64,000 nt of DNA, from NCBI RefSeq assembly GCF_054482525.1, contig NZ_CM137006.1. One strand, 5' to 3'. Below the pieces are notes generated by a model. The model ran no database searches. It was not told the DNA's origin and saw only the letters and a list, made by a program, of their open reading frames with translations. Shown here one piece after another: positions 40,809 to 44,907 of this stretch (positions are counted from its first letter, which is position 1; each line of letters begins with the position of its first letter). The translations under genes were made by a program, and so were the position numbers.

Positions 40809-42017
40809 ATGTTAAAAGTGGAAATGTTATCCACCGGGGATGAAGTGTTACACGGGCAAATCGTTGACACTAACGCTGCCTGGCTGGCCGATTTTTTCTT
40901 TCATCAGGGGTTGCCTTTAACTCGCCGCAATACGGTGGGGGATAACCTTGATGACTTAGTCACCATTCTTCGCGAACGTAGTCAGCACGCCGATGTGCTG
41001 ATCGTTAACGGCGGGCTGGGGCCGACCAGTGATGATTTAAGCGCACTCGCCGCTGCGACAGCAAAAGGTGAAGGCCTGGTGTTGCATGAAGCCTGGCTCA
41101 AAGAGATGGAACGCTATTTCCACGAACGTGGACGAGTAATGGCACCGAGCAACCGTAAACAAGCGGAGCTACCTGCCAGTGCTGAATTTATCAATAACCC
41201 GGTAGGCACCGCCTGTGGTTTTGCCGTGCAGCTTAATCGTTGCCTGATGTTCTTTACCCCCGGCGTACCGTCAGAATTTAAGGTGATGGTCGAGCACGAA
41301 ATCCTGCCGCGTCTGCGCGAGCGTTTTTCTTTACCACAGCCGCCGGTTTGTCTGCGTTTAACTACCTTTGGTCGTTCGGAAAGCGATCTGGCACAAAGCC
41401 TGGACACTCTACAACTGCCGCCGGGCGTAACAATGGGCTATCGCTCCTCAATGCCTATCATCGAACTGAAACTCACCGGACCGGCAAGCGAGCAACAGGC
41501 GATGGAAAAACTGTGGCTGGACGTTAAACGTGTTGCCGGACAGAGCGTGATTTTCGAAGGCACCGAAGGACTGCCCGCGCAGATCAGTCGCGAATTGCAA
41601 AACCGCCAGTTCAGCCTGACGTTGAGCGAGCAATTCACCAGCGGTTTATTGGCTTTGCAACTTTCTCGCGCAGGTGCTCCATTGCTGGCGTGTGAAGTGG
41701 TTCCTTCACAGGAAGAAACCCTGGCGCAAACTGCGCACTGGATTACAGAACGGCGGGCCAACCATTTTGCCGGGCTGGCACTGGCTGTTTCGGGTTTCGA
41801 GAACGAGCATCTCAACTTTGCGCTAGCCACGCCAGATGGCACTTTCGCTCTGCGTGTACGTTTCAGCACTACACGCTACAGCCTGGCTATCCGTCAGGAA
41901 GTGTGCGCAATGATGGCACTGAATATGCTGCGCCGTTGGTTAAACGGCCAGGACATTGCCAGTGAGCATGGCTGGATTGAGGTTGTTGAGTCCATGACCT
42001 TATCCAGTGCGCCGTAA
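40809..42017 (+). CDS. yfaY: CinA-like (molybdopterin-binding / competence-damage-inducible family) protein YfaY
   Basis: 402 aa; N-terminal MoCF-biosynthesis-like domain (MLKVEMLSTGDEVLHGQIVDTNAAWL); the last few codons may derive from the adjacent IS left end. Confidence 0.85.
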   Translation: MLKVEMLSTGDEVLHGQIVDTNAAWLADFFFHQGLPLTRRNTVGDNLDDLVTILRERSQHADVLIVNGGLGPTSDDLSALAAATAKGEGLVLHEAWLKEMERYFHERGRVMAPSNRKQAELPASAEFINNPVGTACGFAVQLNRCLMFFTPGVPSEFKVMVEHEILPRLRERFSLPQPPVCLRLTTFGRSESDLAQSLDTLQLPPGVTMGYRSSMPIIELKLTGPASEQQAMEKLWLDVKRVAGQSVIFEGTEGLPAQISRELQNRQFSLTLSEQFTSGLLALQLSRAGAPLLACEVVPSQEETLAQTAHWITERRANHFAGLALAVSGFENEHLNFALATPDGTFALRVRFSTTRYSLAIRQEVCAMMALNMLRRWLNGQDIASEHGWIEVVESMTLSSAP

Positions 42018-42492
42018 AACCCCGTCCTTCAGGGCGGGGATATAAGGCGCGGTTTTCCACCTGACCAGGTGTTTGCTGTTGTTCAATGTATTGGCGGATG
42101 ACGGATATTGGCGCACCTCCGCAGCTACTGGCAAAATAGCCAGGACTCCACAAAACGCCTTTGTAGTAATACCTGACAGCAATATCTGGTCGATCTCGTC
42201 GCAGAAACCTATTCGATATGCCTTTGAGGCTGTTTACCAGACTGAATATCGCCAGTTTTGGAGGATAGTTAATTAACAAATGGACGTGATCTGGTTCGCC
42301 ATCCATTTCAATCAGTTCAGCTTCAAAATCAGCACATACATTTGAAAAGTAAGTGCGTAGTTTTTCTGTCGCGTCATGGTCAAAAATCTGGCGTCGGTAT
42401 TTGGTGACAAAGACCCGGTGAACATGCATCAGGAAAACACAATGCCTTCCACGCCGGATATCGGTTTCTTTTTTCACAGACCAAAGTATCAT
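41887..42492 (-). CDS. tnpA: IS605-family transposase TnpA (Y1 HUH), apparently C-terminally extended
   Basis: HCVFLMHVHRVFVTKYRRQIF ... PDHVHLLINYPPK (HuH) ... LWSPGYFASSCGG (Tyr region); the core is about 150 aa but the ORF runs to 201 aa through the left-end hairpin and antisense into the yfaY 3' end. Confidence 0.8.
   Translation of the reverse strand: MILWSVKKETDIRRGRHCVFLMHVHRVFVTKYRRQIFDHDATEKLRTYFSNVCADFEAELIEMDGEPDHVHLLINYPPKLAIFSLVNSLKGISNRFLRRDRPDIAVRYYYKGVLWSPGYFASSCGGAPISVIRQYIEQQQTPGQVENRALYPRPEGRGFTAHWIRSWTQQPQSSHAHWQCPGRLTNGAAYSVPSLRTLPDG
42020..42039 (+). repeat. Left-end subterminal hairpin of the IS605-family element
   Basis: CCCCGTCC-TTCA-GGGCGGGG (8-bp stem including one G-T wobble, 4-nt loop); 17 of 20 identical to the right-end hairpin. 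Confidence 0.65.
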
Positions 42493-42499
42493 TTGGCCT

Positions 42500-43708
42500 G
42501 TGAAACGACTACAGGCATTTAAATTCCAGTTAAGACCCGGTGGTCAACAGGAGCGTGAAATGAGGCGCTTCGCAGGCGCATGTCGTTTCGTTTTCAATCG
42601 TGCTCTGGCACGTCAGAATGAGAATCATGAGGCCGGTAATAAATACATCCCTTACGGGAAAATGGCTTCCTGGCTGGTTGAGTGGAAAAACGCCACTGAA
42701 ACGCAATGGCTTAAAGATGCCCCCTCACAGCCATTGCAACAGTCACTGAAAGACCTTGAGCGGGCTTACAAAAACTTCTTCCAGAATCGGGCTGCTTTTC
42801 CCCGATTCAAAAAGCGGGGACAGAATGATGCATTCCGCTACCCGCAGGGCGTTAAGCTCGATCAGGAAAACAGCCGTATTTTTCTGCCGAAACTTGGCTG
42901 GATGCGCTACCGGAACAGCCGTCAGGTCACGGGTGTTGTAAAAAATGTCACTGTCAGCCAGTCCTGCGGTAAGTGGTACATCAGTATTCAGACAGAAAGT
43001 GAAGTATCAACTCCGGATCACCCTTCAGCATCAATGGTCGGGCTGGATGCTGGCGTGGCTAAACTCGCCACGCTGTCAGATGGCACAGTCTTTGAGCCTG
43101 TAAACAGTTTTCAGAAAAACCAGAAGACGCTGGCGAGACTTCAGCGACAGTTAAGCCGCAAGGTCAAATTCAGCAACAACTGGCAGAAGCAGAAACGCAA
43201 AATACAGCGACTGCATTCCTGTATCGCAAATATCCGCAGGGACTACCTTCACAAAGTCACAACGACCGTCAGCAAAAACCACGCAATGATAGTCATTGAG
43301 GATTTGAAGGTCAGCAACATGTCAAAGTCAGCAGCGGGTACGGTCAGCCAGCCGGGGCGCAATGTCCGGGCAAAATCAGGTTTAAACCGTTCGATACTGG
43401 ATCAGGGCTGGTATGAAATGCGCCGCCAGCTTGAGTACAAGCAGCTCTGGCGTGGCGGTCAGGTGCTTGCTGTTCCGCCAGCGTACACAAGCCAGCGTTG
43501 CACGTGCTGTGGTCATACAGCGAAAGAAAATCGCCTGTCACAAAGTCAATTCAGATGCCAGGTATGTGGATATACAGCGAACGCCGATGTAAATGGCGCT
43601 CGTAACATTTTAGCGGCGGGGCACGCCGTTCTTGCCTGTGGAGGGATGGTGCAGTCAGGCCGCTCGTTGAAGCAGGAACCCACCGAAATGATTCAGGCGA
43701 CAGCCTGA
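42500..43708 (+). CDS. tnpB: TnpB (OrfB), RuvC-like RNA-guided nuclease of IS605 family
   Basis: 402 aa, GTG start; RuvC-I ([16 protein letters not shown]), RuvC-II ([10 protein letters not shown]), zinc finger (CTCCGH ... CQVCG), RuvC-III ([10 protein letters not shown]). Confidence 0.9.
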
Positions 43709-43721
43709 ACGTAGCAGGGAT

Positions 43722-43741
43722 CCACGTTCTTCAGGGCGTGG
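43722..43741 (+). repeat. Right-end subterminal hairpin of the IS605-family element
   Basis: CCACGTTC-TTCA-GGGCGTGG, same architecture and loop as the left-end hairpin, 14 nt after the tnpB stop. Confidence 0.65.
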
Positions 43742-44907
43742 AGGATGTCAAGTTGGCGCTGTATGTGCTGGCGTTTCTCGACCGTTCGAATATCGGTTTT
43801 GCCAAACAGACCTACCAGATTGATACCGGGCTGAGTAATGAAGCTTATGCGCTGGGAGCAGGCATTTTCTTTGTGGTATATGCGTTTCTGGGTGTTCCGG
43901 CGAATCTTTTGATGCGCAAACTGGGGGCAAGAACCTGGATTGGTACGACAACACTGCTGTGGGGATTTCTTTCGGCAGCCATGGCATGGGCCGATACTGA
44001 AGCGAAATTTCTGATCGTTCGCACTCTGCTTGGTGCTGCGGAGGCCGGGTTCTTCCCTGGTATGATTTATCTCACCTCGCAATGGTTTCCGCAGCGTAAT
44101 CGCGCCAGCATTATGGGGCTGTTCTATATGGGTGCACCGCTGGCGTTAACACTGGGATCACCGCTTTCCGGCGCGCTGCTGGAGATGCATGGATTTATGG
44201 GGCATCCCGGCTGGTTCTGGATGTTTGTGATTGAAGGATTGCTGGCAGTCGGCGCTGGGGTATTCACATTCTTTTGGCTTGATGACACACCGGAGCAGGC
44301 ACGTTTTCTGAGTAAACAAGAAAAAACGTTGCTTATCAATCAACTGGCAAGTGAAGAACAACAGAAAGTGACTTCTCGATTGAGCGATGCGCTGCGTAAT
44401 GGCCGAGTCTGGCAACTGGCGATTATCTACCTGACCATTCAGGTGGCGGTTTACGGATTAATTTTCTTCCTGCCGACCCAGGTTGCTGCATTGCTGGGGA
44501 CAAAAGTGGGCTTTACGGCGTCGGTGGTCACCGCCATTCCGTGGGTTGCGGTCTTGTTTGGGACCTGGCTTATTCCGCGCTATTCCGATAAAACCGGCGA
44601 ACGGCGTAATGTCGCAGCGCTGTGTGTTGCAGCCATCGGGTTTATTGCCGTGCAGCCGGTGTTCTGGACGATGCCGACACAACTTCTTTCCGGTACGGCG
44701 CTGGCTGCGGGGATTGGTTTTATAAACCTGTTTGGTGCAGTGGGCGGGTTTATTGCCCCGATCCTGCGCGTGAAAGCAGAAACGTTATTTTCCAGCGATG
44801 CGGCGGGATTACTGACGCTGGCAGCGGTGGCGGTCATCGGTTCACTGATTATTTTCACTCTGCGTGTAAATCACACTGTTGCGCAGACCGACGTGGCACA
44901 TCATTAA
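43738..44907 (+). pseudogene. rhmT: MFS transporter RhmT (YfaV), 5'-truncated at the IS right end
   Basis: Homology to the L-rhamnonate transporter begins at LALYVLAFLDRSNIGFAKQ; the native N-terminus (about 20-40 residues) is missing and the ORF opens with a GTG inside the IS right-end hairpin; expression and function uncertain. Confidence 0.6.

Follow-up and report, generated by a model that had tools for sequence, protein, structure and literature searches.

Probable early decay of tnpA beside an intact tnpB in a copy of IS609 at the end of yfaY

The long tnpA reading frame in the window (the whole stretch of 64,000 nt that was analysed, from contig NZ_CM137006.1 of assembly GCF_054482525.1) most probably marks a transposase gene in early decay, which lost its stop codon by a TAG-to-CAG change within a stranded copy of IS609 whose tnpB is retained; we put the probability of this reading at about 80%. 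On alignment, the 201-aa ORF reads as a tnpA of IS609 that has lost its stop rather than as a new kind of protein. For annotation, this means that the ORF should not be entered as a new long transposase, as its C-terminal 58 residues are the left end of the element and antisense yfaY. IS609 commonly decays in this way, by stop loss, and the present case is an ordinary one, mostly annotated already. It illustrates a general pattern in stranded IS605-type elements, in which tnpA decays and the RNA-guided nuclease gene tnpB remains intact.

Assignment to IS609 and boundaries

The region is a peel-and-paste element of the IS200/IS605 family, in which tnpA codes for a Y1 transposase and tnpB, in divergent orientation, for an RNA-guided nuclease. 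The element, at 42004..43751 (top strand, 1748 bp), is a copy of IS609, an insertion sequence already known from E. coli. Its ungapped match to the K-12 IS609 is 98% (1711 of 1752 positions identical across the locus, the K-12 mobile element also being annotated as 1748 bp), and along all 1748 bp it is 97.7–98% identical to the copies of K-12 and O157, against a threshold of at least 95%. With IS609 of the O157:H7 reference and of K-12 (where the copy carries yncK and insQ) it shares the TTAT target, the end hairpins, divergent tnpA and tnpB, and a TnpB of 402 aa. The ends were set by the break of homology at five independent insertion sites and by the K-12 IS609 annotation, which concur in placing the left boundary at 42004, compared with about 42018 earlier. 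The target tetranucleotide TTAT (42000..42003, +) lies directly 5′ of the left end, as at all five of the aligned sites, and homology to K-12 yfaY stops there. No second TTAT follows the right end at the five sites; insertion 3′ of TTAT was without target duplication.

Each end carries a subterminal imperfect hairpin, both of them on the + strand, and there are no terminal inverted repeats, as is characteristic of IS200/IS605 elements. The left-end hairpin (42009..42050, +; inner stem 42020–42039) folds as single-stranded DNA at −17.3 kcal/mol (z −3.9), and its loop and stem resemble those of the right-end hairpin (43721..43742, +; z −3.4), seen as a secondary match in the alignment; the element terminates at 43751 (…GATGTCAA). 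The left-end hairpin might serve as an intrinsic terminator of tnpA, although no more than four U follow its inner stem, which is embedded in a longer stem. The insertion point falls in the last codons of yfaY (40809..42017, +), whose final 14 nt (42004–42017, stop included) are supplied by IS609, such that the product ends in LSSAP* in the window and in LSV* in K-12. On the other side, yfaV minus its first 62 nt (43752..44907, +) is fused directly to the right end of IS609. The tnpB gene (42500..43708, +) is intact and would encode an InsQ-like RNA-guided endonuclease of 402 aa, with a GTG start that is ATG in relatives. The three Pfam domains of TnpB (PF12323, PF01385 and PF07282) denote the RuvC-like nuclease with zinc ribbon that is the accessory protein of the family; NCBIfam NF040570 matched at 387 bits, and tnpB was stop-free in 9 of 10 sampled copies. 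Rfam gave no match above threshold, and its sole sub-threshold match, HgcC, covered the 3′ end of tnpB and the right end.

The tnpA reading frame and its lost stop

The minus-strand ORF runs from ATG (42490–42492) to TAG (41887–41889) and gives 201 aa. The original prediction, that the tnpA frame stays open to the edge of the element and reads through the left-end hairpin antisense to yfaY, was confirmed: the frame covers 201 codons (41887–42492), of which 41887–42017 (131 nt, about 43 codons) overlap yfaY. The tnpA core, codons 1–143 (42064..42492, −), encodes a Y1 HUH transposase matched by Pfam Y1_Tnp (PF01797; residues 18–139, E 6e-40) and NCBIfam NF033573 (residues 13–138, 138 bits; cut-off 55). 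The HUH motif H69-V-H71 and the catalytic tyrosine Y135 are invariant in the TnpA alignment, and Q139 is also retained in the window. The core differs from the O157 reference at 9 of 143 residues, and L26R, V61I and L96F occur in the window copy alone among the sampled copies.

IS608 of H. pylori and ISDra2 share with the element the Y1 HUH fold, a catalytic tyrosine near the C-terminus, hairpins close to the ends and a short target 3′ of which insertion takes place. Y135 aligns to Y127, the catalytic tyrosine of IS608. The tnpA and tnpB genes of IS608 and ISDra2 point in one direction and their targets are TTAC and TTGAT, whereas the window has divergent genes and a TTAT target. The match of the window TnpA to IS608 TnpA (PDB 2a6m, 155 aa) had an E value of 1e-19.

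The change that matters is at codon 144 (42061..42063, −), which is CAG in the window, where the reference IS609 and relatives have a TAG stop. The base at 42063 (+ strand) is G here and A in the TAG copies, a T-to-C difference on the tnpA strand, and codons 143–144 read GGT TAG at three other loci but GGT CAG in the window and in K-12. An intact IS609 has a 143-aa TnpA that ends in the codon-144 TAG, as in O157:H7, in which tnpA is 432 nt (143 aa and stop) and the product is named IS609 family transposase (WP_000604943.1). A stop at codon 144 is found in the reference and in about 24 relatives from other genera (TAG in 22), and is TAA or TGA in more distant TnpA relatives. Relatives include the IS609-like elements of Proteus, Serratia, Morganella, Buttiauxella, Yersinia and Salmonella, which have TnpA proteins 76–84% identical to that of the window, a like architecture and a conserved left end; at least one IS609-like element of other Enterobacterales has inserted recently and interrupts an alpha-amylase gene. 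In the alignment with relatives from other genera, CAG at codon 144 was confined to Escherichia copies. Thus, of two alternatives put forward for the long ORF, loss of the native stop is borne out.

The other alternative, a C-terminal extension of the lineage, is true only trivially: read-through ORFs of 160–254 aa do occur in other E. coli copies, but their tails vary with the flank and match no domain, and TnpA in the other genera of the alignment is 138–146 aa long, never 201. The read-through tail of the window copy (41887..42060, −) comprises codons 145–201 and TAG, with codons 145–163 in the left end and 164–201 antisense to yfaY. Because the 20 left-end codons past codon 144 contain no stop, the tail is determined by the insertion flank. 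The chance of 58 extra stop-free codons is about 0.06 ((61/64)^58), so that the tail length is unremarkable and the significant point is the stop loss. A conserved C-terminal domain was rejected, as there was no Pfam or NCBIfam match past residue 139 and tails differ by insertion site; the AlphaFold2 model of TnpA, itself poor (pLDDT 43), drew the tail as coil of low confidence.

Distribution and annotation of the CAG allele

The CAG allele is a widespread IS609 polymorphism in E. coli and not a private mutation. In complete E. coli genomes, the exact 48-mer with CAG was present in 4010 records and that with TAG in 1256; the 5,426 genomes hold roughly 11,000 copies of IS609. The identical sequence was found in PCN033 and 19KM1776, K-12 MG1655 also carries CAG, and strain PV15-279 carries both alleles. 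NCBI PGAP labels two copies, the identical one of PCN033 and that of 042, as pseudogenes with ‘missing C-terminus’. Truncation of the left end was rejected as the basis of this label, for no part of that end is missing and it lines up with all other copies. The allele resembles the stop-loss (non-stop) pseudogenes of decaying insertion sequences in the removal of a stop by one base, the ORF that enters unrelated DNA and the incomplete flag, and differs from them in being very common and on more than one haplotype background. A literature search on stop loss in IS609 returned no relevant report.

Decay of tnpA and alternative explanations

In 10 sampled copies only, which are mosaic and non-independent, pooled pN/pS was 1.34 for tnpA and 0.32 for tnpB. 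In these copies tnpA is evolving neutrally, and tnpB is conserved and intact. Further internal stops or frameshifts in tnpA were observed in three copies and in K-12, which has TGA at codon 96 besides CAG, and the K-12 IS609 showed zero transposition events in mutation-accumulation lines (PMC5009759). Because tnpA in these copies shows no detectable constraint and often bears further lesions next to an intact tnpB, a transposase gene in early decay with tnpB retained is the likeliest explanation. A single T-to-C transition has turned the tnpA stop TAG at codon 144 into CAG, and translation, if any, would then run through the left-end hairpin into the flank, here antisense yfaY, to reach 201 codons; the extended protein would presumably have no use or be made poorly. 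This might come about if tnpA transcripts stopped at the left-end hairpin, lacked a stop codon and were cleared by tmRNA. The suggestion that this TnpA may be inactive is plausible in view of the missing purifying selection, although H69-V-H71, Y135 and Q139 are kept.

A different explanation is that the stop loss is recurrent or favoured, either through quasi-palindrome mutation (CACCTG GT TAGGTG to CAGGTG) or through selection that silences TnpA and keeps TnpB. The base concerned is part of a small palindrome, CACCTG-AC-CAGGTG (42058..42071, +), perfect with CAG and matched in 5 of 6 pairs with TAG, which is restricted to Escherichia copies, the sole carriers of CAG. Moreover, positions 42063 and 42045 together fail the four-gamete test, one copy (L016) has CAG on a background specific to the yjfZ site, flanked by markers at distances of 18 and 31 nt, and CAG is the majority allele. 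However, the arms have only 5–6 bp, with the mismatch in their innermost pair, which makes them a weak substrate for template switching. The mosaic haplotypes make gene conversion between copies evident, the CAG majority may simply mirror old, vertically inherited copies, and selection for silencing would not require this specific base. We regard a recurrent or favoured stop loss as unlikely.

Several observations do not sit easily with decay. The core ORF of tnpA is open with its HUH motif and catalytic tyrosine, and because TnpA tails naturally vary (155 aa in IS608, and 133 to 159 aa among solved TnpA proteins), an extended protein could still work. In addition, CAG occurs at five or more insertion sites, among them ydcL, yfaY, yedK, yjfZ and gltX, which would fit transposition continuing after stop loss. 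The read-through TnpA would then be active, and the stop-lost IS609 would have stayed mobile, each new site adding a C-terminal tail encoded by the flank. On the other hand, the gltX and yjfZ sites each hold both alleles, and in a neighbour-joining tree of the mosaic copies CAG and TAG are interspersed, so that the sharing of CAG between sites can stem from recurrent mutation or gene conversion. The pN/pS of tnpA (about 1.3) and the further lesions in many CAG copies also argue against an active protein, and TAG copies in the same genomes, such as that of PV15-279, could supply TnpA in trans. We consider activity of the read-through TnpA quite improbable. A sequencing or assembly error in the window, which had been named as a possible source of the apparent read-through, is ruled out by the identical copies, the K-12 allele and the 4010 exact records.

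The tnpA and tnpB start sites

The original prediction placed the tnpA ATG and the tnpB GTG (42500) back-to-back, which is correct: they are separated by 7 nt (42493–42499), a spacing also annotated in other IS609 copies. It took this to suggest unusual or coupled expression control. The close arrangement of the two starts is ancestral in the subfamily and its norm, and is not peculiar to the window copy. The 7-nt gap arises from an ATG specific to IS609; relatives start tnpA at codon 6, which leaves 22 nt between the starts. In contrast to the window, IS609-like elements of other Enterobacterales have the codon-144 stop, ATG starts 22 nt apart and an intact ATTATACT. This conserved core lies in their 22-nt gap, 7 nt from each ATG, and is readable as a −10 box on both strands. 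The window retains a degenerate core, ATGATACT (42485..42492, −), at the place of this putative two-strand −10 box, and the T-to-G change within it creates the annotated tnpA ATG. Annotated codon 6 (42475..42477, −), where relatives have the ATG of a 138-aa TnpA, is GTG, but strain 042 has ATG there in its yfaY-site copy (position 42477). IS609 is thus degraded at the core and at both ancestral ATGs (ATGATACT, GTG and GTG).

Each promoter had been expected to lie inside the coding sequence of the other gene. This would be necessary for the −35 regions alone, but not for the −10-like core in the gap of the relatives. Scanning for promoters revealed no canonical sigma-70 site close to either start, and a literature search on insQ/yncK expression, leaderless IS605 genes and transcription starts found nothing relevant. 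The position of the conserved ATTATACT core 7 nt from each ATG suggests that two divergent leaderless mRNAs with overlapping −10 boxes were made in the ancestral layout, and coupled control of tnpA and tnpB is possible. A TAnnnT hexamer 6–7 nt from the ATG was present at 57 of 79 related loci, as a pattern in the DNA letters only, and TAnnnT-TGGTCT-ATG is deeply conserved at the tnpA start of the IS605 subfamily, in Enterobacterales as well as in Streptomyces, Chlamydiae and Melainabacteria. Two further readings are tentative and rather doubtful. In the first, TAG-to-CAG changes would recur in IS609, perhaps aided by the palindrome, and commonly silence or modify TnpA with TnpB kept, or a flank-tailed TnpA may be active. 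In the second, TAnnnT-TGGTCT-ATG would mark a leaderless transposase mRNA and, in the enterobacterial group, would stand back-to-back with the −10 box of tnpB, so that the two genes are expressed divergently and in a coupled way. If true, such a start signal, and a stop loss that may recur, would give testable handles on how transposase expression is kept low in these elements.

An imperfect 13-bp inverted repeat (42472..42505) spans both GTG codons. It is not conserved in relatives and is polymorphic in E. coli (at 42496), which makes a function, such as that of an operator, doubtful.

Identity and ends of the element

The stretch 42000–43751 gave a gap-free alignment, with 1711 of 1752 positions identical, to the K-12 locus that bears the annotation 'insertion sequence:IS609'; this locus is 1748 bp long and by annotation holds the pseudogene yncK and insQ. 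We set the ends by aligning copies from five chromosomal sites (yfaY, ydcL, gltX, yedK and yjfZ), at all of which homology begins right 3′ of TTAT and stops at …GATGTCAA, thus IS609 occupies 42004–43751 with the target TTAT at 42000–42003. On the plus strand, imperfect hairpins lie at the left end (42009–42050, inner stem 42020–42039) and at the right end (43721–43742). Every IS200/IS605 family feature tested was found, which identifies the element as IS609, one of the known members of this well-studied family. The original prediction had put the left boundary ∼14 nt too far in; with the left end at 42004, the last 14 nt of yfaY, stop included, are IS609 sequence, and the yfaY C-terminus reads LSSAP* compared with LSV* in K-12. 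Across 1801 nt the window is identical in E. coli PCN033 and 19KM1776, and the yfaY/IS609 junction is present in 187 of 5426 complete E. coli genomes. The region 43651–43764 (tnpB 3′ end and right end) is the expected place for the guide (omega) RNA of TnpB, and its first hairpin (43692–43709) spans the tnpB stop; in an Rfam search HgcC scored 19 bits here, below its gathering score of 50.

Loss of the tnpA stop codon

As originally predicted, tnpA on the minus strand is a 201-aa ORF, from ATG at 42490–42492 to TAG at 41887–41889, with 7 bases (42493–42499) between its annotated start and the GTG start of tnpB at 42500. Y1_Tnp (Pfam) matches tnpA residues 18–139 (E 6e-40) and NF033573 (NCBIfam) residues 13–138; the 402-aa tnpB ORF on the plus strand has three TnpB domains (Pfam) and matches NF040570 (NCBIfam) at 387 bits. 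Inside tnpB (42548–42563), AGGAG is followed 6 nt on by an in-frame ATG (42561), where some gene callers set the start, giving 382 aa and a partly lost N-terminal domain.

A protein search returned TnpA relatives of 138–146 aa in Salmonella, Proteus, Klebsiella, Photorhabdus, Yersinia and Morganella, each with the C-terminus …YIEQQQTP[S/G/D]; among E. coli relatives of ≥90% identity, lengths range from 143 to 254 aa, with a common sequence to residue ∼163 and divergence beyond. Around codon 144 (42061–42063) the DNA reads GGT TAG in three copies, one from Salmonella, one from Proteus and one of E. coli type (L006), and GGT CAG in the window and K-12, hence the cause of read-through is a single base. 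The O157:H7 copy, called 'IS609 family transposase' by PGAP, has a 143-aa TnpA with TAG at codon 144. A wider scan of one genome per species gave ∼24 readable relatives, all stopping at codon 144, 22 of them at TAG and the more distant at TAA or TGA; the sole other CAG came from an Escherichia sp. genome that has a TAG copy too. Together, the protein lengths, the DNA comparison, and the reference copy and scan indicate that the ancestral stop is TAG at codon 144. The suggestion that the native stop had been lost is upheld by these comparisons, which trace the loss in the window to a T-to-C change at 42063 (plus-strand G). Because the 19 left-end codons that follow (145–163) contain no stop, the frame exits IS609, codon 164 being TAT of the target and the remainder antisense to yfaY. 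In a 2057-nt contig of Streptomyces mutabilis JCM 4400, the translated tnpA 3′ end and the left end of an element are near-identical to those of a Proteus mirabilis copy (L012); the Streptomyces assembly is probably contaminated.

Probable decay of tnpA and retention of tnpB

We consider it likely, at a probability of roughly 80%, that tnpA is undergoing decay and that tnpB is being kept. The extended TnpA could be functional, judging from an open core ORF in which H69-V-H71, Y135 and Q139 are present and aligned to the catalytic residues of IS608 TnpA, and from the variable C-terminal length of solved TnpA proteins. Against this, pooled pN/pS over 10 sampled copies was 1.34 for tnpA and 0.32 for tnpB, figures that are descriptive only, as pairs are non-independent and copies mosaic. 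Moreover, several copies carry further lesions (codon 96 is TGA in K-12 and TUM1886, and O145 and ATCC 8739 have frameshifts), and the window copy has L26R, V61I and L96F, which are absent from the other sampled copies; codon 26 shows three different states among yfaY-site copies. The read-through tail had no domain match in a Pfam search and was predicted as coil by a poor model, and IS609 of K-12 did not move in mutation-accumulation lines (PMC5009759), both of which also argue against function. Possibly, tnpA transcripts ending at the left-end hairpin would be non-stop mRNAs when made from the CAG allele, and would be cleared by tmRNA; this hairpin is only a weak terminator candidate. In Proteus mirabilis (L012, 1015–4421) an alpha-amylase gene is interrupted by a relative whose TnpA (138 aa) and TnpB (402 aa) are intact; this looks like an active element that inserted recently, and it would be useful as a control.

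Distribution and origin of the CAG allele

Copies at ydcL, yfaY and yedK have CAG and those at yeaR and yidH have TAG, while gltX and yjfZ have some copies with each. Position 42063 paired with 42045 fails the four-gamete test. In one yjfZ copy (L016), CAG lies between yjfZ-specific markers 18 and 31 nt off, and CAG on this background calls for either a further mutation or gene conversion over a very short tract. The base change completes a small palindrome, CACCTG-GT-CAGGTG, seen in Escherichia copies only, and template-switch correction could have produced CAG there, which we regard as unlikely given the short arms.

An exact 48-mer for each allele was searched against 5,426 complete E. coli genomes, and matched 4010 records for CAG and 1256 for TAG, so that read-through is the majority form of IS609 in E. 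coli; some genomes, for example PV15-279, have both alleles. Sequencing error, raised earlier as an alternative, is ruled out by these exact CAG matches. Of ∼565 plasmid matches to the whole element in E. coli genomes only ∼39 have the 48-mer of the tnpA 3′ end and left end, hence most plasmid copies seem to lack that end. Defective IS609 tnpA is already flagged in public annotation, and PGAP lists the copies in PCN033 (identical to that of the window) and 042 as pseudogenes, 'missing C-terminus'. The literature searched held no description of the TAG-to-CAG cause, its population frequency or the conserved start motif; these are refinements and no new kind of system.

Back-to-back starts of tnpA and tnpB

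The divergent start layout is common to all IS609 copies and relatives. Relatives have an ATG start for each gene, with 22 nt between the two, and the intergenic order is CAT (tnpB start, other strand), 7 variable nt, ATTATACT, TTGGYCT and ATG. Read on the tnpA strand, ATTATACT gives TATACT, and on the tnpB strand TATAAT, with 7 nt between each hexamer and its own ATG. Among more distant relatives, a TAnnnT hexamer lies 6–7 nt before TGGTCT-ATG in 57 of 79 loci, including Streptomyces, Chlamydiae, Sulfurovum and Melainabacteria. TTGG[T/C]CT directly 5′ of the tnpA ATG is kept across phyla (57/79 loci; L026–L105), always downstream of TAnnnT, with its window equivalent at 42478–42484, and it is non-coding since in-frame stops lie upstream in several loci. 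This pattern suggests, at the level of sequence, leaderless mRNAs with overlapping −10 boxes in the relatives.

In IS609 the core is ATGATACT, with GTG at both ancestral ATG positions (42500–42502 and 42475–42477), positions that are ATG in all relatives outside Escherichia; codon 6 of tnpA is also ATG in the strain 042 copy at yfaY. The annotated tnpA ATG (42490–42492) is made by a T-to-G change in the core, therefore the 7-nt gap is IS609-specific and the ancestral tnpA start is codon 6 (42475–42477). Each promoter had been expected to lie inside the other gene, which holds for the −35 regions only; the putative −10 boxes overlap in the core between the relatives' starts. Coupled control of tnpA and tnpB would be possible. 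A 13-bp inverted repeat over both GTGs is neither conserved in relatives nor fixed.

Flanking genes

Compared with K-12 (L004, 5092–7438), 2347 bp are replaced by IS609 (window junctions 42000–42004 and 43751–43752), namely the last 7 nt of yfaY, the whole of yfaX and rhmD, and the first 62 nt of yfaV. Since both K-12 breakpoints are directly 3′ of TTAT, the IS609 target, the replacement is consistent with recombination between two earlier IS609 insertions or with an adjacent deletion made by TnpA. The truncated yfaV (43705–44907) remains in frame across the IS609 right end; PGAP starts this MFS transporter at CTG (43705), within IS609 and overlapping the tnpB stop, and the first GTG is at 43738. 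Its N-terminus is therefore IS-encoded, and any transcription of it probably comes from tnpB read-through. At 44612–44622 yfaV is without 72 nt (24 codons, in-frame) that are found in K-12 and strain 042, a segment bordered in K-12 by an 11-nt direct repeat.
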